Shown: piece after piece, positions 19,318 to 64,000 of the stretch
Numbering within the stretch: position 1 is the first letter of the stretch
How the letters are laid out: the number at the start of each line of letters is the position of its first letter
Assembly (NCBI GenBank): GCA_033791445.1
Contig: JASJGS010000121.1
Span: forward strand, 7,938 to 71,937
Origin: Bacteroidales bacterium
GTDB lineage: Bacteria; Bacteroidota; Bacteroidia; Bacteroidales; VadinHA17
Direction: 5' to 3'
Length of the DNA: 64,000 nucleotides
Notes under the pieces: model-generated
The model's database searches: none
What the model was told of the DNA's origin: nothing
The model's input: only the letters and a program-made list of their open reading frames with translations
Position numbers and translations under genes: made by a program

Positions 19318-19836
19318 TTAAAGTGGTAATAGACCATCAGGAATTGTCATAGATATTATTTTGGCCTCATGGTTAATGTCAAGGATAAGCTCATCATTTG
19401 CTGGAATCATTATTTCACTTTCCATATAGCTTATAATGAAAAGAGGATTGCCAGGAATCTCACGAATTTCTTTAACATATCCCAGACTCAAATTATCCTC
19501 CGATCTGAGTTGATATCCAATTAGTGAAACACTACTTTGACTGGAATGATTCTCTTTCTCTAGCTCAGCAACTGGCAGAAATACATCCTTACCGATAAAA
19601 CCAACAGCTTCATTCTTTGAATTTATTTCATCAATTTTTAATAGGAAAGAGGAGATATTGTACTCTTCCATTTCTTCAATAAAAAAAGGAACCAGTATCC
19701 CATCCATTAATAAGAATACTGATTCCAATATTTCTAATTTCTCTTGATACTGGAGATTGACCTTTAGTACAATCTGCCCACCATAGCCATGAGTTTTGAC
19801 TAAAGTACCCAAGAGAAAACAATCCTCTATGGTCAT
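19318..19836 (-). CDS. rimM: Ribosome maturation factor RimM
   Basis: G(T)LVKTHGYGGQIVLK N-terminus and a PRC-barrel-like C-terminus. It lies immediately downstream of rpsP. Confidence 0.8.
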   Translation of the reverse strand: MTIEDCFLLGTLVKTHGYGGQIVLKVNLQYQEKLEILESVFLLMDGILVPFFIEEMEEYNISSFLLKIDEINSKNEAVGFIGKDVFLPVAELEKENHSSQSSVSLIGYQLRSEDNLSLGYVKEIREIPGNPLFIISYMESEIMIPANDELILDINHEAKIISMTIPDGLLPL

Positions 19837-19887
19837 AAAAAAAGAAAATATGATTATGCCTTATGACTGAAAAAATAAAGGGAAAAA

Positions 19888-20736
19888 TTACTTTTTCTCT
19901 TCAGCTTTCTTGTCTTCCTTTTTCTCTTCAGCTTTTTTGTCTTCCTTTTTCTCCTCAACCTTTTCCTCAGCAACTTCTGCTTTTACCTCTTCTACCACTT
20001 CAGCCTCCTCGGTTACTTCAGGTTTTTCAACCTCTGTTTCTACTAAAGTTTCTTCAACAGCTGTTTCGGCTGCAGCTTCAGTTACAGCTTCAACTACTTC
20101 AGCCTCCACTTTAACTTCCTCAGTTACTTCAGGTTTCTCAACCTCTGTCTCTACTACAGTTTCTTCAACAGTTGTTTCGGCTGCTGGTTCAGTTGCAGCT
20201 TCAACGGCAACTTCCTCTTCTACAACTTCCTCTGGTTCAGAAGCTTTCTTTTCAGCTAATTCTGCTTCTTCAGCAAGTGCAGACTGCCTCTTGGCTATTT
20301 CTTCAGCTCTTGCTTCATTGATCTTGGTTTCAGCTTCAAAGATTTCTTTTTCAGCATCCTTCTGAGCTGATAGGAGTTGATCTATTTTGGCCTGAACCTT
20401 TCCTTCTTTCTCCTTAAGCCATGTCTGAAACCGATTTTCAGCCTCCTCCTCAGAGAAGGCTCCTTTTTTTACACCATTTAATAGGTGATTCTTAAATATA
20501 ACTCCTTTAAATGAAAGGATAGCTCTACAGGTATCTGTAGGTTGAGCGCCATTTTGTAGCCAATTTAGTGCACTATCAAAATCCAATTCAATAGTGGCAG
20601 GATTTGTATTTGGATCATATATTCCAATCCTTTCAATAAATCTGCCATCCCGTGGCGCCCTGCTATCAGCAATCACAATATGATAGAAAGGTTTTCTTTT
20701 CCTACCCTGTCTTGTTAGTCTGATTTTTGCTGGCAT
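19888..20736 (-). CDS. rpsP: 30S ribosomal protein S16 with ~190-aa acidic repeat-containing C-terminal extension
   Basis: N-terminus [42 protein letters not shown] is canonical bS16. The remainder is an E/A/V/K/T-rich low-complexity region. Confidence 0.9.
19891..20205. repeat. In-frame tandem repeats inside the rpsP tail
   Basis: A 27-nt unit (ctttttctcttcagctttcttgtcttc) occurs about 2.6 times at 19891-19960. Segments 20008-20094 and 20119-20205 are ~87 nt each, with 79/87 identical by hand alignment. Their period is 111 nt, which is 37 codons. Confidence 0.85.
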
Positions 20737-20781
20737 TTTTTACGCTTTAAATTTAACCTGTGTTTTTTAAAATTTGGTCTG

Positions 20782-20789
20782 CAAAGGTA
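20782..20789 (-). promoter_or_regulatory. Bacteroidota -7 promoter box TACCTTTG (rpsP)
   Basis: The reverse complement of caaaggta, 45 nt upstream of the rpsP ATG. Confidence 0.5.
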
Positions 20790-21030
20790 CAATTAAATTG
20801 CTTTATTAAAAATATTTTTAAATTAATAATCTAAATACAACCAATTTGAAATGACAAGATCCATTCTTGCTTATTAAATATTGATAGTCAGTATGCTTGG
20901 AATTCACAATTTTAAATTTTACATAACTTATTAACATAAGACTATTTTACCTAGCTTTTAATTAACTTTAAAACCTGATTAATTCAATCAGTAATTATTA
21001 TACTAAATTCATTATCTGCATATTAAAATC

Positions 21031-24000
21031 GTGAATCCATTTACTCATTTACATGTTCATACCCAGTATTCAATTTTGGACGGTGCTTCAAGCGTTCCCC
21101 TCTTATTAAAGAAGGCTAAAGAAAATAACATGACTGCAGTTGCCATAACAGACCATGGTAACCTTTTTGGAGCAAAACATTTTTATGATACCGCCCGAGC
21201 AAACGGAATAAAACCAATTATCGGATGTGAAGTCTATGTTTCAAGGAACAGTCGATTAGCAAAAGCTGAAAAATCAGACCGAGGAGGAAACCATCTTATA
21301 TTGCTGGCAAAAAATAAATTAGGATATCAAAACTTATCCAAACTGGTTAGCATGGCCTGGATTGAAGGCCATTATTACAAACCCAGAATTGATAAAGCTC
21401 TTCTTGAAAAATACTCTGAAGGAATCATTGCATCTTCAGCCTGTTTAGGTGGAGAAGTTCCTCAGGCTTTCTTAAATAATGATGAAGCTGCTGCTGAAGA
21501 GTCTGTTTTATGGTTCAAACAACTCTTTGGAGAAGATTATTACCTGGAGCTTCAACGTCATAAAACGGGAGATCCTGAAATTGATAGTGATACATTCACC
21601 AAGCAAGAGAAGGTAAACAATAAGCTCATCCAAATTGCAAAAAAACATAATATCAAAATCATTGCTACCAACGATGTTCATTTTATAAATGAAGAAGACG
21701 CAGAGGCACATGACAGGCTTATATGTTTGAATACGGGGAAAGATCTTGATGACCCCAACCGATTAAGATATACACAACAGGAATGGTTTAAATCCCAGGA
21801 AGAGATGAATGAACTTTTCTCAGACATTCCCGTAGCTCTTGAAAATACAATGGAGGTGGCCGCAAAAGTATCAGATTACGAATTGGACAGGACACCTATA
21901 ATGCCTGATTTTCCGATTCCTGATAATTTTAAAGATGCAGATGAATATCTCCGTCATATATCATTTGAGGGGGCAAAAGAAAGATACGAAACTATAACCG
22001 ATGAAATCAAAGAAAGAATCGAATTCGAATTATCGGTTATAAAAAATATGGGTTACCCCGGATACTTTCTTATCGTACATGAAGTATTGAAAGCTGCGAG
22101 GGAAATGGGTGTATCTGTAGGTCCGGGACGTGGTTCTGCTGCTGGATCTGTGGTTGCCTACAGCCTGCGAATAATTGATATTGATCCTTTGAAATATGGA
22201 CTCCTGTTTGAAAGGTTTTTAAATCCTGATCGAATTAGTCTTCCTGATATTGATATTGATTTTGATGAAGATGGCCGTGACGATGTATTAAAATGGGTAG
22301 TTAACAGGTATGGGAAGGAAAGAGTAGCCCATATAATTACCTTTGGAACTATGGCTGCAAAAATGGCCATCAGAGATATTGCAAGAGTTCAAAAGCTCCC
22401 TTTACCTGAAGCAGACAGGCTTGCCAAACTTGTTCCCGAAAGACCCAAGGTCACTCTTGCTGATGCCTACAAAGAGGTAAAAGAGCTCAGAGAAGCAAAA
22501 GATTCTGATAACCCTCTGATTTCCCAAACCTTAAAATATGCCCAGATATTGGAGGGCTCAAAACGACATACCGGCGTGCATGCCTGTGGTATAATTATTG
22601 GGAAATCTGATCTAATAGACCATATTCCATTATGCACATCAAAGGATTCAGACTTAATGGTAACCCAATTTGATGGAGATTATGTGGAAAGCGTAGGAAT
22701 GTTAAAGATGGACTTCCTCGGCCTAAAGACATTGTCAAAAATCAGGGATGCTGTGGAAAATATAAAAGAGTCAAAAGGCATTGACCTGGACATTGAATCC
22801 ATTCCATTAGACGATCCTAAGACTTTTGAATTATTTAGTAATGGGGAAACGACGGCATTGTTCCAGTTTGAGTCTGATGGAATGAAAAAGCACTTGAAGG
22901 AGCTTAAGCCAAACAGGTTTGAAGACCTGATTGCCATGAATGCTCTTTATCGCCCCGGACCTATGGATTATATTCCAAAATTCATCAGCCGCAAGCATGG
23001 TAAATCAAAAATCCAGTATGACTTGCCTGTAATGGAAGAGTACCTGAAGGACACTTACGGTATTACAGTTTACCAGGAACAGGTGATGCAGCTTTCAATG
23101 GCTATGGCTGATTTTACCAGAGGTGAGGCAGATTCCCTGAGGAAGGCCATGGGAAAGAAAAAGAAGAAAGAGATGGATAAACTCAAGGAGAAATTCCTTG
23201 AAGGATCAGCTAAAAATAATATAGATAAAAAAATAGCAGAGCAGGTTTGGCATGATTGGGAAGCATTTGCCCAATATGCTTTCAATAAATCCCATTCCAC
23301 CTCCTATGCATATGTTGCATATCGTACTGCCTATTTGAAAGCTCATTATCCATCAGAATATATGGCAGCTGTATTAAGCAGGGAGATAAAAGACATCAAA
23401 AAAATCACCCAATATATGGATGAGTCGAAGCGGATGGGCATATCTGTACTCGGACCTGATGTAAACGAAAGTAATATCAAATTTACTGTGAATAAAGAGG
23501 GAAACATCCGGTTTGGACTTGGTGCTATAAAAGGAGTAGGGAAAAATGCTGCTGCAGAGATAGTAAAAGAAAGAAAACAAAATGGGCCATTCACAGACAT
23601 TTTTGATTTTGTTGAACGGGTTGATCTGTACTCGGTAAACAAGAAAAACCTTGAAGCATTAGCTATTTCAGGATCTTTCGACAACTTCGAAAACATAAAA
23701 AGAGAACAATATTTTGCAGAAACCAACTCTGGTTCAACCTTTACTGAAGATCTAATACGATATGGCAATCGAGTAAGTCAGGAAAAAAATACTACCCAAC
23801 AATCTCTTTTTGGTGAAGCTGAAAATTTTGAATTTGCCAAACCTGCAGCACCCATAGTACAAGAATGGTCAAAAGTTGATAAGCTTAAAAAAGAAAAGGA
23901 ATTGGTGGGCGTATATATTTCTGCGCACCCATTGGATGATTTCAAATTTGAAATAAACTCATTTAGTAATGTTACTCTGAATGAACTGGATGATCTGAAA

Positions 24001-57691: not shown

Positions 57692-58378
57692 TTATTGTAA
57701 AACAAAGTTTATTGGGAATGTAAAGGAAACCCTTACTGGTTTTCCTCTCTGTTTTCCTGGAGCCCATTTTGGTGATGATTTAACAACCCTGATAGCTTCT
57801 TTATCAAGGGCTGGATCAACTCCACGAACGATACCTACATTTGAAATAGATCCATCAGGTTCAATAACAAATTTTACAAATACTCGGCCACTAATACCAT
57901 TCTCAGCAGCAATTTCTGGATATTGTAAGTTGTTACCTATATAGGTTCTGAAACCGTCCTGACCTTTACCCTGGAAACTGGGCATATCCTCAACAATGAA
58001 GAAAATCTCAGCTTCTTCTTCCTCTTCTTCCTCTTCTGAAAACTCCATGATTTCAATTTCACTTTCCTGGTCTACTTCAAAGTCTTCCAGTTGCAATTCA
58101 TCTTCCAATACTACATCATCTTCAACAATTTGAAGAACTTCAGTAACCTTGGGAGGTTCTGGTGGCTTCGGAGGCTCAGGTTGTTCTTGACGGGTGATTG
58201 GAATAATTTCTTCTTCAATCTGCTCTGAATCTCCAGTATCGAATTCATTTGCAGATAGACCGCCGCTTGTCCACTCAAAAGCGATCAGCATTAGAGATAG
58301 GGCTATTACAAGGCCCAACTGAAAGAAAACACCTTTTCTTTTTTCAAGGTTTACCCGATCATTTTTCTTTAGTTCCAT
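57692..58378 (-). CDS. tonB: Energy transducer TonB
   Basis: N-terminal TM helix, a Pro-rich PEPPKPPEPPK segment, an acidic EEEEEEEE stretch, and a C-terminal TonB_C pattern (GRVFVKFVIEPDGSISNV). Confidence 0.85.
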   Translation of the reverse strand: MELKKNDRVNLEKRKGVFFQLGLVIALSLMLIAFEWTSGGLSANEFDTGDSEQIEEEIIPITRQEQPEPPKPPEPPKVTEVLQIVEDDVVLEDELQLEDFEVDQESEIEIMEFSEEEEEEEEAEIFFIVEDMPSFQGKGQDGFRTYIGNNLQYPEIAAENGISGRVFVKFVIEPDGSISNVGIVRGVDPALDKEAIRVVKSSPKWAPGKQRGKPVRVSFTFPINFVLQ

Positions 58379-58588
58379 TTTGATAAAATTTAGTGGCTAA
58401 AAATAGTTATTTCTTGATTTAAAATCAAATGATTCCAAATTTGTTTTTGAAAATCTGCAATAAAAACTATATTTTTTACTCACTATATAGGCCACAAAAA
58501 TCAGTCCAAAATTCAGGTTTTCAGAATAAAAATTACTGATTAATGAAATAAATTCATTACTATTTTTTCTGTAGAATTTGTTTTTTGT

Positions 58589-58596
58589 TATTTTTG
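58589..58596 (+). promoter_or_regulatory. Bacteroidota -7 promoter box TATTTTTG upstream of the truncated tRNA-Ala 5' copy
   Basis: TAnnTTTG match 23 nt upstream of position 58619. It is 197 nt upstream of the intact tRNA. Confidence 0.4.
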
Positions 58597-58609
58597 CATC
58601 CTGTTTTCA

Positions 58610-58634
58610 TTGAAATATGGGGCATTAGCTCAGT
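58610..58634 (+). repeat. 25-nt direct repeat, copy 1 (9 nt of upstream flank plus first 16 nt of tRNA-Ala)
   Basis: ttgaaatatggggcattagctcagt is identical to 58784-58808. Confidence 0.9.
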
Positions 58635-58669
58635 CCCGATAAAATTGAAATCTTTGATTTCTTAATTTA

Positions 58670-58700
58670 TCGAGGATCCTCGAAACATCATGATGTTTCG
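58670..58700. repeat. Two overlapping perfect palindromes
   Basis: tcgaggatcctcga (58670-58683) and cgaaacatcatgatgtttcg (58681-58700). Both are self-complementary by hand check. Confidence 0.9.
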
Positions 58701-58783
58701 GGATTGGAAAGTATAATTGAGCAAAGCTTTGTGAATTTACGGAACTAGAGCAGGCGGAAATTCTTTGAGATTAATGATGTTAT

Positions 58784-58808
58784 TTGAAATATGGGGCATT
58801 AGCTCAGT
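58784..58808 (+). repeat. 25-nt direct repeat, copy 2 (overlaps the 5' end of the intact tRNA-Ala)
   Basis: Identical to 58610-58634. Confidence 0.9.
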
Positions 58809-58866
58809 TGGCTAGAGCGTTTGACTGGCAGTCAAGAGGTCATCGGTTCGATTCCGATATGCTCCA
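58793..58866 (+). tRNA. tRNA-Ala (anticodon GGC)
   Basis: Hand-folded: acceptor GGGGCAT/ATGCTCC with G3:U70, D stem GCTC/GAGC, anticodon stem TTTGA/TCAAG with loop CTGGCAG, T arm ATCGG-TTCGATT-CCGAT, discriminator A. 74 nt, with no encoded CCA. Confidence 0.9.
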
Positions 58867-58957
58867 CACAGATAATCAAAGGGTTACAGTCGTTCAGATT
58901 TGTAACCCTTTCTTTTTTGCCAGAAATTTGCCAGACAGCTGATGAGAAGGGCGATTA
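58825..58957 (+). repeat. Left copy of the ~133-nt direct repeat (tRNA-Ala 3' 42 nt plus terminator plus TTGCCAG pair)
   Basis: It aligns with 62623-62755. The tRNA part is 40/42 identical. The downstream part is roughly 85% identical by hand alignment. Confidence 0.85.
58878..58918 (+). terminator. Rho-independent terminator after tRNA-Ala
   Basis: Perfect 11-bp stem aaagggttaca/tgtaacccttt with a 12-nt loop, followed by ctttttt. Confidence 0.75.
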
Positions 58958-59129
58958 CGCTCATCATTTTATCTCCTTTTTTAACTCAACGAACTGAAAA
59001 TCCCCATAGTAGTATAGTACAATTTAAGCTACATAATCTGTATATTTACTCATATACCGCTATTGGCGGTAGAATATAAGTCTTACTCATAAGTCTATGA
59101 ATTAGTATTAACAAAAAGGATGTTGAGCA

Positions 59130-61286
59130 ATGAGAATTACAATTGCATATAATCTTCGCATGGATGATACGGAAGCTACAGCTGAACTCCTCACGAAGGC
59201 GGACATAAGTCGGATATCCGATGCCATTAATAGTCTTCAACATAAAGTTACGGAAGTTGAGGTTTCGGGTAAACCAAATGATGTGATTGATCGCCTTATC
59301 GAAAGTGAACCTGATCTCATATTCAATCTGGCAGAGGGGACGATCGGCAGTTCCCGTGAGGCTTTCTATCCCGGTTTGTACGAGCAAATGGGCATTCCGT
59401 TCACTGGCGGAAACGCATCACTGCTTCATCTCAATCTTGATAAACATCTTGCTAAAACCGTCTTGGCATCGCACGGAATCAACATCCCCAAAGGTGTTTT
59501 GATTACCGAGAAGGAACGAAATCTACCCGATAATTTACAATATCCCCTAATAATTAAGCCGAATTCTGAGGGATCAAGCAAAGGTATTACACAGGATTCA
59601 GTTGTTGAATCACATGATCAGGCCCAGGAAAGAATAAGCAAATTATTAAGACATTATCCCGCAGGTCTTGTTGTTGAGGAATTTATAGGAGGCCGAGAAC
59701 TCAGTATTCCCTTGCTTGAAAGCTTTCCGGGTAAATTGCTTGACATCGTTGAACACACTTTTGACATGGACAAGATCGATGGCAAATACAATGTATATGA
59801 TTACGACATGAAACAAGGAGGAGAAGCAGCAAAATCAGTTAATGTTGTTTGTCCTGCCAATCTTAACTCCCAGGAGAATAAAGCTGTTGTAAAAATGGCC
59901 CGTGCGGTTTTCGATATCATGTCTTGCCCTGATTTTGGCCGGGTAGATATTCGATTACATACAAACGGGCAACCTTATTTTATTGAACTTAATCCGCTAC
60001 CAAGTCTTCATCCAAATGCTTCCCTTATAACGGCAGCCAAATCGCGCGGACTCGAATCAAGGGATGTTATGCGGTTGATCATTCGCTCTGCCGCTCGCCG
60101 ATACGGCTTGGCAATCAGATCGATGAAGCAGCCCAAAAACGGTAAAATTACATCAGGTGCCTCACGACCTACCGCCAGAGAACTGGGGATCCAAATTGGC
60201 CGGATGCGCCCGGGAATTTATAATGCAATCACAGATATTAAGGGCGTTCGTGTTGGCCATTTTTCTCGGATAGAAGATGGTGTTCCAATTCCCGGAGGGA
60301 CAGGGGTCAGTTGCATACGTACTGGTATTACAGCAATTATGCCCGCTGGACAGGCTTATGCCAATCGGATTGTAGCCGGTGGCTTTATCCTCAACGGTGT
60401 TGGAGAGATGGCTGGACTTACCCAAGTTATGGAAACAGGTTGGCTGGAAACACCAATTCTTCTCACAAATTCGCATTCAGTTGGTCGGGTACATGATGGC
60501 GTTGTCAACCAAATGATTAAAAAGTACCCTCTTCTTGGAACCGAAACCGATGTGATTCTACCTGTAGTTGGCGAAGCCGACGATTCTTTTCTGAACGATA
60601 TAAGAGTTGGATCCTGTTCAGCACAAGACACCGTTAAGGCCATAAAGGCGGCATCATCCGGACCGGTAATGCAAGGCTCGATTGGGGCTGGCACAGGAAT
60701 GACAACTTTTGACTTTGCCGGAGGAATAGGTACTTCTTCCCGAATATTAGACCTTTCTGGAAACGATACATTTACAGTTGGAGTGCTTGTACTTTCAAAC
60801 TTTGGAAAGATGCATAACCTTACCGTAGATGGAGCCGTTGTTGGCAGACAACTGAACGAGGAATTCGATGTGACAGGACGTCGGGAGGTGTCAGAGGGAT
60901 CAATCATCGTTGTGGTTGCCACCGATCTCCCACTCATTACCAGTCAACTTAATCGTGTAGCCAAACGGGCTGCTCTTGGTCTTGGCCGAACAGGTTCTTA
61001 TGCTGCCTCAACCAGTGGTGAAATTATAATTGCTTTCAGTACTGGTAACCGTAAGCCTCGGCAACCCAACACAAGCAGTAATTTTTTAACTTTAAAATGT
61101 ATTTCCGATTCTCATATAAATTTGGTTTATGAAGCGGTAATCGAAGCAACCGAAGAGGCCGTATTAAATGCAATTTGCTGCTCTAATGGAATGAGTGGAC
61201 GTAAGCAACGCTGGTGTCCGCCAGTTCCACACGAACGCATTATCGAACTATTGAAAAATGGAAGAACAATTCATGAAAGTAATTGA
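59130..61286 (+). CDS. Fusion protein: D-Ala-D-Ala-ligase-like ATP-grasp domain (N) plus DmpA/peptidase S58 (P1) domain (C)
   Basis: The N-terminal half has Ddl-type ATP-grasp features (PLIIKPNSEGSSKGI, VVEEFIGGRELS, GRVDIRL...YFIELNPLPSL). The C-terminal half has S58-like blocks (ITDIKGVRVGH, TGITAI, NG.GE, GSIGAGTGMTTFDFAGGIGTSS, ATDLPL). 718 aa. AAGGA lies 9 nt upstream of the ATG. Confidence 0.7.
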   Translation: MRITIAYNLRMDDTEATAELLTKADISRISDAINSLQHKVTEVEVSGKPNDVIDRLIESEPDLIFNLAEGTIGSSREAFYPGLYEQMGIPFTGGNASLLHLNLDKHLAKTVLASHGINIPKGVLITEKERNLPDNLQYPLIIKPNSEGSSKGITQDSVVESHDQAQERISKLLRHYPAGLVVEEFIGGRELSIPLLESFPGKLLDIVEHTFDMDKIDGKYNVYDYDMKQGGEAAKSVNVVCPANLNSQENKAVVKMARAVFDIMSCPDFGRVDIRLHTNGQPYFIELNPLPSLHPNASLITAAKSRGLESRDVMRLIIRSAARRYGLAIRSMKQPKNGKITSGASRPTARELGIQIGRMRPGIYNAITDIKGVRVGHFSRIEDGVPIPGGTGVSCIRTGITAIMPAGQAYANRIVAGGFILNGVGEMAGLTQVMETGWLETPILLTNSHSVGRVHDGVVNQMIKKYPLLGTETDVILPVVGEADDSFLNDIRVGSCSAQDTVKAIKAASSGPVMQGSIGAGTGMTTFDFAGGIGTSSRILDLSGNDTFTVGVLVLSNFGKMHNLTVDGAVVGRQLNEEFDVTGRREVSEGSIIVVVATDLPLITSQLNRVAKRAALGLGRTGSYAASTSGEIIIAFSTGNRKPRQPNTSSNFLTLKCISDSHINLVYEAVIEATEEAVLNAICCSNGMSGRKQRWCPPVPHERIIELLKNGRTIHESN

Positions 61287-62283
61287 GAAATATAACGACA
61301 GTCAGCACAATCCATATTGGAAGTATCAACTTGGACCGGGTACGTACGAAGTAAAAGATACGCCCCAACGCGTTGAAGCCATTAAGAAATCCCTTCACGC
61401 CGATGAACGATTTGAATTTCTTACAGCAAAGCCCTTTCCGGAAAGACTAATCACCCGACTACACCCCTATCACGATTATATCAGGAACACAGCATTAAGT
61501 TTACAAAACGATGAGGAGGAGTTTTATCCCGATCTATTCCCTGGCGAGGGTGCCCATCGCAGAAAAAGATCTGATTCACCACTCTGGGGAGGGATATGGT
61601 GTACCGATGCAGTTACACCCATTAAAAGAAAAACCTATGAAGTTGCACGTGCCTCTGCTGAAACTGCATTGACCGGCGCTGAATTAATCCGCAATGGCCA
61701 TGAAAAGACAGTATATGCCCTGTGCCGACCCTCCGGACATCATGCAGGACCCCGTGTATTTGGCGGCTATTGCTACTTTAATAATGTAGCTACTGCTGCC
61801 GAGTATTTATTACCTGAAGGTAGAGTAGCGATTGTAGATATAGATTATCATCATGGAAACGGAACACAGGAGTTTTTTGATGATATAAAGTCTGTATTTA
61901 CTGCATCCATTCATGGTGATCCTGATGATGAATACCCCTACTTTTGGGGCTATGCCGACGAAAAAGGCAAAGGTCAGGCTATTGGTACAAATCATAATGA
62001 ACCTTTTCCCAGGGGTACGCAATTGGAACAATACAGCAAAGCTTTAGATCGCATACTTAATAAAATTCGTGAGTTTAATCCTGCATACCTTATTATTGCC
62101 GCAGGTTTCGATACGCATGAGGCTGACCCTATTGGTGGCTTTAAGCTTCGCACGGAAGATTACTTTGCAATGGGTAAACAGTTTCAGTCTCTGGGAATAC
62201 CCACATTAGTATGCCAGGAAGGTGGATACAACATTGATGTTTTAGGAGAATGTGTGAAGAATTTCCTTCTTGGGCTGAGATAA
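61258..62283 (+). CDS. Histone-deacetylase-family (arginase-fold) amidohydrolase, acetylpolyamine-amidohydrolase-like
   Basis: The full catalytic set is visible: PSGHHA, DIDYHHGNGTQ, GFDTHEADP and EGGY. An alternative ATG exists at 61273. Either start overlaps the upstream stop at 61284-61286. Confidence 0.8.
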   Translation: MEEQFMKVIEKYNDSQHNPYWKYQLGPGTYEVKDTPQRVEAIKKSLHADERFEFLTAKPFPERLITRLHPYHDYIRNTALSLQNDEEEFYPDLFPGEGAHRRKRSDSPLWGGIWCTDAVTPIKRKTYEVARASAETALTGAELIRNGHEKTVYALCRPSGHHAGPRVFGGYCYFNNVATAAEYLLPEGRVAIVDIDYHHGNGTQEFFDDIKSVFTASIHGDPDDEYPYFWGYADEKGKGQAIGTNHNEPFPRGTQLEQYSKALDRILNKIREFNPAYLIIAAGFDTHEADPIGGFKLRTEDYFAMGKQFQSLGIPTLVCQEGGYNIDVLGECVKNFLLGLR

Positions 62284-62498
62284 AACAAGTGCTACTGATG
62301 AAAGAAAAAACAGAGCGCCAAAGGGTCCACTTCAGAGGTAACATCTCATCGTTCTTTAGATGAGTGAAAATTAAGCATAACAAATCACTGCACTGGATTT
62401 TTACTCCGCTGCGATCCGTAAAAACCAGTGAGCTCAATCGTTCTACAAACCACAATAATCAAAGGAAATTGAAGCATTAAAAATTGTTCCCCAGAATA

Positions 62499-62517
62499 TT
62501 GCCAGCTAAATTGCCAG
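62499..62517 (+). repeat. Paired TTGCCAG motif (12-nt spacing) inside the right end of the islet
   Basis: ttgccagctaaattgccag. Related pairs with 11-nt spacing lie at 58917-58934, 62715-62732 and 62881-62898. Confidence 0.8.
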
Positions 62518-62622
62518 CCAAGTGGAAAATGGGTGGAGTATATAGGAAAAAGAAATCTAATTATAATTGTAATGTAGTGTATGAGAGTATAATGGAGTCA
62601 GGTGGGAAATCCCGTATTGTCT

Positions 62623-62755
62623 CTGGCAGTCAAGAGGTCATCGCATCGATTCCGATATGCTCCACTCTAATAATCAAAGGGTTACAGATTTCAGAATTTG
62701 TGACCCTTTCTTTTTTGCCAGTTTTTTGCCAGCCAGCTGATCAGATTAGCGATTA
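62623..62755 (+). repeat. Right copy of the direct repeat; 62623-62664 is a displaced, decayed tRNA-Ala 3' half
   Basis: ctggcagtcaagaggtcatcgCAtcgattccgatatgctcca, with two substitutions hitting the T-stem/T-loop junction. It is followed by a near-copy of the terminator hairpin and a TTGCCAG pair. Sequence 5' of 62623 does not align with the tRNA 5' half. Confidence 0.85.
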
Positions 62756-62852
62756 TGTACACTATGTAAAGAACGATTTACTAGTACACATCAAATATAA
62801 AACTAATATCTTAGTTAATCAACTAATTCTTTAGTTTTATTGAAGGATTGCT

Positions 62853-62905
62853 GTCGTTCAGATTTGTAGCTTTTTCCTTTTTGCCAGCATTTTGCCAGCA
62901 AGTTG
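62853..62905 (+). repeat. Third, partial copy of the post-tRNA repeat (terminator loop/3' arm plus TTGCCAG pair)
   Basis: gtcgttcagatttgtagctttttcctttttgccagcattttgccagcaagttg resembles 58889-58940. It is closer to copy 1 than to copy 2 in the loop segment. Confidence 0.7.
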
Positions 62906-63085
62906 TTCGGAATAGGTGGAAACCCCTATAATATAATAGGGGTTCAATCACTAAAATGCTATACTAAGCATATTTCAACAACACATTTTCAAACCCAGGA
63001 TTGCCTGAAAATTCAGCTAATTATGTGCAAACTCACCAAACGATAGCAATTTCATTTTCTGCTATGGGTGCTGTTGTTTAAGTAG

Positions 63086-63131
63086 CTGCTTTGTGAGCAG
63101 GGAGTCGTAAGTTCAAACCTTACAACTCCAA
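63086..63131 (+). other. tRNA-like 3' fragment (hairpin plus T-arm plus acceptor 3' strand), not a complete tRNA
   Basis: Hairpin ctgct-ttgtg-agcag, then T arm gtaag-ttcaaac-cttac, then aactcca-a. No matching 5' acceptor strand, D arm or anticodon arm could be folded upstream. Confidence 0.45.
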
Positions 63132-63554
63132 CGGTTGATAATAAGGGTGTTAGACATGATTTGACTTCCTTTTGTATTTTGTATAGGTGAAACATGGGGG
63201 AACCAATTCTCTTTTTTTCGTTATACAGCCAGGTGTAACAATTTTTCAGAATTTTCGTTAGAGTTAAAAGTGCCATCAGTCCCAACAATCTAATGAGTTA
63301 TTTTTTTCACATCTACTACGAAGAACTAAGCCGAATAGTTCCTGGTTTGGTGATTCTCCGATGTTTGGTTGGATTAGGAGGAATTTATTGCCTGATGCTG
63401 GATATAACCTCATCCCGGGGTAGTTAAGTTGTACTTCTTAAAAACAAGTGGAATGGTTGGAGAAAATAGCTTACTTATTGTAAGAATGAAGAATCTGCGG
63501 AAGAGGGTGCTACTTGGATACAACTCAAGTTATGTTTAGAAAACTCCATTAGAT

Positions 63555-64000
63555 TTGAATAAGATTTTTAGTAAGTTATTAGTTATAATTTTAATTTCAT
63601 TCCTGTACTCGATTGTTTCATGCAATAGGGAACAGGTATCAGAATTTCCACTTATTCAGACTGGTGAAGTGGTGGATATCGACAGCACCGGTGCCACTCT
63701 ATATGCTAATATTCTGGCCCTTGGAGAAGAGCCCATTCTGGATTATGGTTTTACCTGGAGCAAGACCCCCAAACCTTCAGTAGCTAACGCAAATGTTATT
63801 TCTGTTCCAGGCTCGCCAGAGACCAGAATAATCAGCCACAGGCTATCATCAGCTTTAAGAGAAGGGGGAGATTATTTTGCCAGGTCATTTATCCGGAACG
63901 CTCAATATACTACCTATGGCCGAGAAGTGCATTTCATCAGCCATGGTGGAGCAATCCCTGTAATTACCGACATCTTTCCTTTGCGGGGAAACCTGAATGA
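63555..64000 (+). CDS. Hypothetical lipoprotein, 3' end cut by window edge (possible IPT/TIG-like repeats)
   Basis: Own translation from TTG: (M)NKIFSKLLVIILISFLYSIVSCNREQVSEF... The signal peptide has an IVSC lipobox, and the frame is open to the window end. It is not in the ORF track. Confidence 0.55.
   Translation, partial: MNKIFSKLLVIILISFLYSIVSCNREQVSEFPLIQTGEVVDIDSTGATLYANILALGEEPILDYGFTWSKTPKPSVANANVISVPGSPETRIISHRLSSALREGGDYFARSFIRNAQYTTYGREVHFISHGGAIPVITDIFPLRGNLN

Follow-up and report, generated by a model that had tools for sequence, protein, structure and literature searches.

A stretch of 64,000 nucleotides from a Bacteroidales bacterium (contig JASJGS010000121.1, positions 7,938 to 71,937), which we call the window, carries a two-gene cassette in which a Ddl-like ATP-grasp ligase is fused to a DmpA/BapA-type peptidase of the S58 family, and the fusion is followed by a deacetylase of the acetylpolyamine amidohydrolase (APAH) type. 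The cassette probably encodes a bifunctional ligase/hydrolase and a deacetylase partner that function in compatible-solute metabolism. More specifically, we favor the reading, to which we assign a probability of roughly 0.4, that it is a self-contained mobile operon with three amide-bond active sites for N-epsilon-acetyl-beta-lysine (NeABL) and its parent compound beta-lysine. Methanogens and some anaerobic bacteria use NeABL as a major compatible solute. This reading draws on the conservation of the two genes as a unit, on their recurrent association with the genes ablA and ablB, and on the active-site residues of the three domains. The parts of the cassette are these:

59090..59129 (+): conserved short leader 5′ of the fusion gene, at the start of which a 93.6% blastn match to two other loci (L001/L053) begins

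59130..60110 (+): ligase half of the fusion, residues 1-327, Ddl-like ATP-grasp (Pfam Dala_Dala_lig_C, motif alignment)

60111..60164 (+): inter-domain linker, approximately residues 328-345, the sole variable block in a 15-sequence alignment

60165..61286 (+): S58 half of the fusion, residues 346-718, DmpA/BapA-type Ntn hydrolase (Pfam PF03576, PDB matches), ending with TGA at 61284-61286

60897..60902 (+): codons of the predicted autoproteolytic site Gly590|Ser591, aligned to DmpA Gly249|Ser250; Ser591 is the predicted N-terminal nucleophile of the beta chain

61273..62283 (+): APAH-type zinc deacetylase with an HDAC fold, 336 amino acids from the conserved start, with an alternative in-frame ATG at 61258 (Pfam, PDB, motifs)

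The fusion gene is an open reading frame of 718 codons (59130-61286, + strand), and the second open reading frame of the pair is likewise present. An earlier note, made by a model from the sequence alone, had proposed that an ATP-grasp domain and an S58 domain share this one polypeptide. Pfam indeed gives both, with Dala_Dala_lig_C covering residues 128-318 (7e-29) and Peptidase_S58 (PF03576) covering residues 365-694 (8e-105; 351 bits against a gathering score of 23.9; profile positions 1-305 of 307). The same note had placed the junction near residue 330, which is close to the result of a conservation alignment of 15 homologues (66-94% identity) in which a poorly conserved linker occupies approximately residues 326-350. 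Solved structures that share 25-47% sequence identity are the basis of the fold assignments throughout; an AlphaFold2 model of the fusion built from the 15-sequence alignment reached only pLDDT 51 and pTM 0.38 and was set aside.

Identical proteins are already on record in a contig of a Bacteroidales metagenome-assembled genome (MAG), where the NCBI label of the fusion is "P1 family peptidase". NCBIfam has no equivalog model for the fusion or for the deacetylase, and the public names "D-alanine--D-alanine ligase", "P1 family peptidase", and "AcuC-like" are misleading for both genes. The start of the 718-residue version, MRITIAYNL, is invariant among homologues. Public record MDX2443913.1 begins the fusion at Met87 (632 amino acids), and the conserved ATP-grasp N-terminus is thereby lost.

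The two genes behave as one unit. Among 101 loci that have a complete fusion and room downstream, the deacetylase is the next gene in the same orientation in 100, the exception being a contig binned as Bdellovibrionota (L062) that is without a downstream deacetylase. In the window, in-frame deacetylase ATG codons at 61258 and 61273 would overlap the end of the fusion gene by 29 and 14 nucleotides, respectively. The earlier note gave the start of the second gene as 14-29 nucleotides before the stop codon of the first. The overlap is real, and the start can be narrowed to 61273 (MKVIEKYND), as this start is the conserved one. The exact 14-nucleotide overlap is found in 60 of 100 loci, and a start/stop overlap of some length (4-29 nucleotides) in 77, which bears out the translational coupling that had been suggested. 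Between the window and five homologues, each of the three domains has a dN/dS of 0.06-0.14, and their rates are similar. Judging from these substitution patterns, all three domains are predicted to be functional and to evolve as one unit under purifying selection.

Departures from this arrangement were observed at a few loci. In Psychromonas sp. MB-3u-54 (L005, 10157-10439), the end of the fusion gene is separated from the deacetylase gene by three tandem copies (approximately 95 bp each) of the final 31 fusion codons, so that a gap of 268 nucleotides takes the place of the usual 14-nucleotide overlap. A Holophagae MAG (L076, 1863-4979 and 7714-10850) holds the whole cassette twice in inverted orientation, with one copy frameshifted and with duplicated small open reading frames between them; this could reflect duplication and decay or an assembly artefact. 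At the Bdellovibrionota-binned locus (L062, 5797-7890), a 697-residue tandem double ATP-grasp protein lies directly upstream of the fusion, and each of its repeats is approximately 32% identical to the ligase half. Tandem double ATP-grasp proteins are common among distant relatives, and candidates of approximately 700 residues that had been considered as distant S58 fusions proved to be proteins of this kind and were rejected.

The cassette is rare and widely scattered. In a protein search, full-length fusions formed at least 120 clusters (66-94% identity). When 185,579 species were scanned, each through a single genome, 98 proved to be carriers, and their record titles place them in at least 15 phyla; a metagenome scan added 47 loci. 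The species-genome count is a lower bound because the scan required exact peptide patterns, and MAG taxonomy depends on binning, so that single contigs are possibly misassigned. Carriers are found in Bacteroidota, Desulfobacterota (including cable bacteria), Gammaproteobacteria, Calditrichota, Spirochaetota, Kiritimatiellota, Lentisphaerota, and Verrucomicrobiota, and further in Planctomycetota, Acidobacteriota, Gemmatimonadota, Sumerlaeota, Eisenbacteria, Bdellovibrionota, Marinimicrobia/Fidelibacterota, and Myxococcota. Cultured carriers include Marinilabilia salmonicolor, Draconibacterium halophilum, Tangfeifania diversioriginum, and a Psychromonas strain. By a reading of the labels, with no statistic attached, many isolates come from marine, saline-lake, brine, or soda-lake sediment. 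A co-occurrence of the three domains restricted to this one genome would have spoken against the earlier note's proposal; they instead co-occur across all of these phyla. Chance could not account for the pair being found, at 61-94% identity and under purifying selection, in approximately 120 independent loci.

Neighboring genes give an indication of function. Flanking open reading frames of approximately 125 loci were called and clustered all-against-all, and the only families besides the cassette that recur across lineages are a GNAT protein of 280-290 residues (11 loci) and a radical-SAM protein of 440 residues (6 loci). All five GNAT proteins tested exceed the equivalog cut-off of TIGR03827, the beta-lysine N-acetyltransferase AblB (269-332 bits versus 205), and both radical-SAM proteins tested exceed that of TIGR03820, the lysine 2,3-aminomutase AblA (763-773 bits versus 525). 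One additional locus (L142) carries MarR-ablA-ablB 7 kb downstream of the cassette (19371-22120), which raises ablB to 12 loci and ablA to 7. If every genome had ablB, and if 10 kb on either side of the cassette is considered in a genome of approximately 4 Mb, then by our estimate random placement would yield approximately 0.6 ablB matches per 125 loci, versus the 12 observed.

Linkage of the cassette to ablA/ablB is seen in 12-13 of the approximately 125 loci, and in at least four gene orders. The order ablA-ablB-fusion-deacetylase-SSF symporter occurs in L010 and L081/L086, and the shorter ablB-fusion-deacetylase in L011, L015, L113, L124, and L060. Elsewhere the cassette comes first, as in fusion-deacetylase-ablB (L005, Psychromonas), fusion-deacetylase-ablA (L039), and fusion-deacetylase-ablA-amino-acid ABC transporter-ablB (L040). 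At L128, the order is ablA-MscS-type mechanosensitive channel-ablB-fusion. With this channel and the solute transporters, osmoadaptation genes accompany ablA and ablB in some loci. In eight loci, among which L081 and L086 are near-duplicates, ablB stands directly 5′ of the fusion in the same orientation. The gap between the two genes is 36-49 nucleotides in L010, L015, L081, L086, and L113, 144 in L011, and 349 in L128; L060 and L124 have no gap, and the end of ablB there shares 4 nucleotides with the beginning of the fusion gene. A Bacteroidota ablAB operon without the cassette (L144, 8110-13156) reads MarR-ablA-ablB-MarC-SSF, and therefore the L010 cassette sits inside such an ablAB operon.

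As a separate observation, Bacteroidota-type ablAB operons start with a MarR-family regulator (L144, L142), and at L144 the genes for MarC and a sodium:solute symporter follow. Bacteroidota may accordingly have a conserved, regulated acetyl-beta-lysine operon, of which we found no description in the papers that we read.

The placement of ablB directly upstream of the fusion in eight loci suggests co-expression of acetyltransferase, ligase, and deacetylase, and it could be taken to mean that beta-lysine is being extended, with the acetyl group serving as a transient protecting group. AblB would mask the epsilon-amine, the ligase would couple the protected molecule, the deacetylase would deprotect the product, and the S58 domain would trim it or act as an aminoacyl transferase, to give a new solute or small peptide. 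In keeping with this, DmpA and BapA catalyze aminolysis besides hydrolysis (PMC9235088). We nevertheless consider such a pathway unlikely, given that most cassettes lack nearby ablAB, that genes for an exporter or for further tailoring are not conserved in the neighborhoods, and that a linear biosynthesis leaves little room for a hydrolase fused to the ligase that it opposes.

The deacetylase matches Hist_deacetyl (Pfam, 1.4e-66). The earlier description of an arginase-fold deacetylase with all catalytic motifs intact holds, in that GHHAG, DIDYHHGNG, GFDTH..DP, and EGGY align to APAH structures and are kept across 89 non-identical cassette deacetylases, the second of them in the form D-x-D-x-HHGNG. 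These motifs constitute the His-His pair, the Asp/His/Asp zinc ligands, and the catalytic Tyr of the HDAC fold. The family also has signatures of its own, CTDAVTP and EYPYFWGY. In bacterial polyamine deacetylases, the L1 and L2 loops confer polyamine specificity and drive the formation of head-to-head dimers (PMC11532494). As to these loops, the first 100 residues of the protein match 6phr and 9gkz in length without large gaps and share little sequence identity with them.

From the resemblance of this enzyme to polyamine deacetylases, the earlier note had suggested a polyamine conjugation cycle, in which the ligase joins an amino acid to a polyamine, the S58 domain releases it, and the partner deacetylates acetylpolyamines to feed the cycle. 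The closest solved relatives of the deacetylase are indeed acetylpolyamine amidohydrolases (6phr, 3q9b, 9gkz; E 5e-66 to 1e-62), EGGY and the catalytic residues are kept, and glutathionylspermidine synthetase/amidase provides a precedent for polyamine conjugation by such an enzyme pair. Yet no genes for polyamine biosynthesis, transport, or acetylation are recurrent near the cassette among the approximately 125 loci, where the recurrent neighbors are ablA and ablB. Moreover, the bacterial polyamine deacetylases grouped by Graf et al. as cluster 4 carry RPPGHH and PIS motifs, with PIS at the position of the PEG gatekeeper of HDAC10 (PMC11532494). In the cassette family these are replaced by RPSGHH, found in 87 of 89 deacetylases, and by PIG, found as DPIGG in all common variants of this segment; the Ile is kept and the Glu gatekeeper is absent. 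RPPGHH itself appears only in an unfused relative at L132. For these reasons a polyamine substrate now seems improbable, about as much so as the protecting-group pathway. The general idea of the earlier note, a ligase fused to the hydrolase of the opposite reaction and accompanied by an APAH-like partner, is retained, since its domains and motifs are confirmed.

The best reading in our view is that beta-lysine and acetyl-beta-lysine amides, and not polyamines, are made and broken by the cassette. An APAH-like enzyme fits NeABL equally well, because NeABL is an N-acetylated diamine with an added carboxymethyl group.

The ligase half can be examined in the same manner. Ddl-family ATP-grasp enzymes form amide or ester bonds through an acyl-phosphate intermediate. 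The nucleotide and Mg2+ motifs of the ATP-grasp fold are present in the fusion as KPNSEGSSKG, GRVDIRL, and IELNPLP; they align to Ddl/VanA and are invariant in the 15 homologues. The public annotations would imply a cell-wall D-Ala-D-Ala (or D-Ala-X) ligase fused to a D-aminopeptidase, and it is true that the solved structures nearest to the N-terminal half are Ddl and VanA (1e-22 to 1e-17) and that DmpA is a D-aminopeptidase. However, the many NCBIfam Ddl/Van models that match all remain far under their curated cut-offs, the best being PRK01372 at 149.8 bits against 243 (TIGR01205, 131.5 against 245.65). In Ddl, the Tyr that follows the catalytic Lys in the omega loop and the Ser that binds the carboxylate of the second D-Ala (D-Ala2) are substrate-site residues. 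Here the Tyr is replaced by Gln229 ("YDYDMKQ" versus "YDYDAKY" in Ddl) and the Ser by Ala297 ("NAS" versus "HSL" in Ddl), and both replacements are invariant in the family. Because Gln229 and Ala297 stand at these positions, the ligase half is best classified, by alignment, as a Ddl-family paralogue with a different predicted substrate site and not as a Ddl. In addition, the gene is accessory, mobile, and rare, and no mur or fts genes are nearby. A role in cell-wall synthesis is thus very unlikely, and we return to beta-lysine chemistry as the preferred explanation.

The roles of the catalytic and anchoring residues of S58 enzymes are known from the structures of DmpA and BapA, and these residues can be located in the C-terminal half of the fusion. 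This half matches the Pyrococcus "D-aminopeptidase" (2drh, 1e-84), DmpA (1b65, 8e-73), and BapA (3n2w, 3e-62). With residues counted in the alignment, "SEG|SIIVVVATD" (Gly590|Ser591) coincides with "ERG|SIIVVLATD" of DmpA; Asn557 and Ser629-Gly630 coincide with DmpA Asn218 and Ser288-Gly289, with Glu631 aligned as well; and Glu482 stands at the position of the Glu that anchors the amine in BapA. Every one of these residues is invariant in the 15 homologues. Whether the self-cleavage site is intact had been raised as a check on the earlier proposal. Alignment indicates that the site and the catalytic residues are conserved, with cleavage predicted between Gly590 and Ser591. To our knowledge, no natural substrate or role has been established for the S58 beta/D-aminopeptidases, which are mostly known for cutting synthetic beta-peptides.

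Unfused relatives offer another view of the same partnerships. The standalone ATP-grasp protein nearest to the ligase half of the window (P0125) is 50% identical to it over the whole domain, and it lies in clusters that combine ablA, ablB, a deacetylase on the opposite strand, and the ATP-grasp gene, that is, ablA-ablB-HDAC(-)/ATP-grasp(+), without an S58 gene (L132 and L137, which are related contigs). At L135, a PepV/Sapep-type M20 dipeptidase comes after a standalone ligase relative (46% identity), and at L143 a separate ATP-grasp gene that belongs to the same subfamily lies ahead of a standalone S58 protein that is 61% identical to the S58 half of the window. Because these unfused relatives show the same pairings, the ligase appears to be the core of the system, pairing repeatedly with a peptidase for N-terminal beta- or D-aminoacyl residues, and with a deacetylase where ablAB is present.

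In L132 (8204-9508) and L137 (3608-4912), a protein of 434 residues follows the unfused ATP-grasp gene. The two copies are 91% identical, belong to no family, and have weak ferritin-like/di-iron E..H motifs. We considered this protein as an analogue of the peptidase and rejected the idea, as its only matches are these weak ferritin-like ones and the two loci are closely related.

Considering these observations together, it seems reasonable to propose how the three active sites might cooperate. Like acetylputrescine and acetylcadaverine, NeABL is an N-acetyl-alkylamine of slender shape whose ammonium group is distal, and the APAH-type deacetylase would strip the N-epsilon-acetyl group from NeABL or from an amide that contains it. 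The ATP-grasp half would convert the carboxylate of a beta-amino acid to an acyl phosphate and pass it to an amine acceptor, giving a beta-aminoacyl amide or dipeptide. The S58 half would cleave itself at Gly590|Ser591, after which Ser591 would remove the N-terminal beta-aminoacyl residue and so reverse the ligation. The outcome might be interconversion, storage, or disposal of a solute pool, or salvage of an imported solute. We infer the substrates, the acceptor amine, the net direction of flux, and the regulation from these comparisons. Pool control or salvage ranks slightly higher than biosynthetic extension, on the grounds that ligase and hydrolase are fused and that approximately 90% of the cassettes stand alone.

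Several points weigh against this proposal. In approximately 90% of loci, this window included, there is no ablA or ablB within 8-10 kb. Where they are present, a deacetylase that is co-transcribed with the acetyltransferase AblB looks futile, unless there is post-translational regulation or the acetyl group is a transient protection. The cassette deacetylase has approximately 50% core identity to true polyamine deacetylases versus 40% to the unfused deacetylase of the ablAB clusters, and these similarities are comparable. S58 enzymes also take D-Ala and Gly N-termini, so that a beta-amino acid is not required. Finally, the AlphaFold model is too poor for any assignment of substrate-binding residues.

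A related scheme involves reversible condensation. On a drop in osmotic pressure the ATP-grasp half would make a beta-peptide or dipeptide of NeABL or beta-lysine, on an increase the S58 half would free the monomers, and deacetylation by the APAH-type enzyme would be the sole exit from the pool. This we regard as doubtful, if somewhat easier to entertain than polyamine conjugation or solute extension. If it were true, the condensate would be the first physiological substrate for beta-aminopeptidases like DmpA and BapA, for which we know of no natural role. The cassette would also be the first turnover route known to us for NeABL, carried on a two-gene unit that is spreading across phyla in sediment bacteria, many of them from sources with saline-sounding names. 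More generally, a conserved peptidase-ligase-deacetylase unit that recurs inside ablAB operons provides concrete candidate substrates for S58 peptidases.

The region around the cassette documents its mobility. The G+C content of the unit is 42-48% versus 36-38% in the flanks, and the unit lies between direct repeats next to a tRNA gene. The features of this site are these:

58793..58867 (+): tRNA-Ala(GGC), directly upstream, its 3′ half within the left repeat copy (ARAGORN; Rfam tRNA 67 bits)

58825..58957: left direct-repeat copy of 133 nucleotides, consisting of the tRNA-Ala 3′ half and approximately 90 nucleotides downstream with a hairpin, 84% identical to the right copy at a spacing of 3798 nucleotides

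62623..62755: right direct-repeat copy of 133 nucleotides, consisting of a pseudo-tRNA-Ala 3′ half and a terminator-like hairpin at 62676-62709 (repeat search, sequence reading)

62843..62912: third, partial copy of the tRNA-downstream sequence, 79% identical (repeat search)

The 3.8 kb between the direct repeats holds the two cassette genes only, and no integrase was found within the insertion. An exact 25-nucleotide duplicate of the tRNA 5′ end (58784-58808) lies 174 nucleotides upstream at 58610-58634, and a sub-threshold tRNA-like remnant (Rfam 25.6 bits) is located at 63072-63131. Because of the third partial repeat copy and the exact tRNA duplicate, the tRNA-Ala site looks like a repeatedly rearranged and decayed integration hotspot. 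An Rfam scan of 58300-63600 returned no riboswitch or leader, only the tRNA and the sub-threshold remnant, and a scan for sigma-70 promoters gave a site count not above that of shuffled sequence. A tRNA gene stands directly upstream in 1 of 60 other loci (L058), and we therefore rejected tRNA-linked insertion as a general feature of the cassette; the tRNA-Ala site is particular to this genome.

Comparison at the DNA level leads to the same view of mobility. Identity of 93.6% to a contig binned as Kiritimatiellae is restricted to 59090-62284, which is exactly the two genes, and identity of 86-88% to a Psychromonas isolate reaches 62442. Together with the G+C contrast and the bracketing repeat, this cross-phylum identity substantiates the claim that the pair is an isolated, horizontally acquired unit. 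It is an unusually small mobile metabolic module, which moves among at least 15 phyla with its translational coupling kept.

In two loci the cassette lies amid ParE, VapBC, and RelE/MqsA-type toxin-antitoxin pairs, DNA methylases, and an AAA_15/AAA_21 ATPase (L001, 5247-6820; L002, 1101-7159 and 11312-11792). Such surroundings are variable genomic islands, as would be expected for a gene pair that is accessory and mobile. They might also suggest that the cassette is itself an anti-phage defence or toxin-type module. This we find the least credible explanation of all, as a PADLOC-DB search (E up to 0.01) gave no match for either protein, defence genes do not recur among the neighbors, and all three domains belong to small-molecule amide chemistry. 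Nor does the module appear on plasmids: in a tblastn search of PLSDB, S58 and Ddl genes turned up separately, at <60% identity, and never as a fused copy.

The literature that we searched leaves subscription journals mostly outside, so that an earlier mention is possible; within it, the fusion, its pairing with the deacetylase, and an acetyl-beta-lysine deacetylase are undescribed, in agreement with the earlier note's impression that the arrangement is not a described pathway. The AblA/AblB pathway makes NeABL in methanogens and some bacteria (PMC3543383, PMC2412884). As described, it consists of AblA and AblB only; we found no linked deacetylase, ligase, or peptidase in the same literature, which covers the synthesis of NeABL and holds no account of its removal, recycling, or modification.

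Individual parts of the cassette have well-characterized counterparts. The deacetylase resembles M. ramosa ApaH, P. aeruginosa PA1409/PA0321, and PsApaH of Pseudomonas sp. in fold, length, approximately 50% core identity, and the GHH, D-x-H, D, and EGGY motifs, and differs from them in RPSGHH, PIG, CTDAVTP, EYPYFWGY, and the coupling to a ligase-peptidase gene. In vancomycin resistance, a Ddl-family ligase (VanA/Ddl) acts with the dipeptidase VanX. The cassette likewise pairs a Ddl-family ligase with a hydrolase, which is of the S58 and not the M15 metallopeptidase type; its ligase falls under the Ddl/Van thresholds, and van regulators are absent. Precedents also exist in solute metabolism: DoeB, the N-acetyl-diaminobutyrate deacetylase of the ectoine Doe route, places a deacetylase in compatible-solute turnover, and a GNAT/ATP-grasp enzyme makes the osmoprotective dipeptide NAGGN. 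Both involve enzyme families and solutes unrelated to those of the cassette, and neither has a fused hydrolase.

A parallel in chemistry is offered by carnosine, a beta-alanyl dipeptide that an ATP-grasp ligase makes and that PepV (M20), DmpA, and BapA hydrolyze (PMC9235088). The same enzyme families are thus opposed on a beta-aminoacyl dipeptide, just as relatives of the cassette ligase pair with S58 or PepV/Sapep-type M20 peptidases. Unlike the cassette proteins, those of the carnosine system are separate polypeptides from different organisms and have no link to a deacetylase or to beta-lysine genes.

A parallel in organization is glutathionylspermidine synthetase/amidase (GspSA), which holds an ATP-dependent amide ligase and the hydrolase that reverses its reaction in one polypeptide, for regulated conjugate cycling. 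GspSA combines a CHAP-type cysteine amidase with a GspS-type synthetase, has no deacetylase partner, and uses other substrates, whereas Pfam finds only ATP-grasp/Ddl and Peptidase_S58 domains in the cassette fusion. The likeness is one of functional logic only, namely that a ligase and its opposing hydrolase are joined in a single chain.

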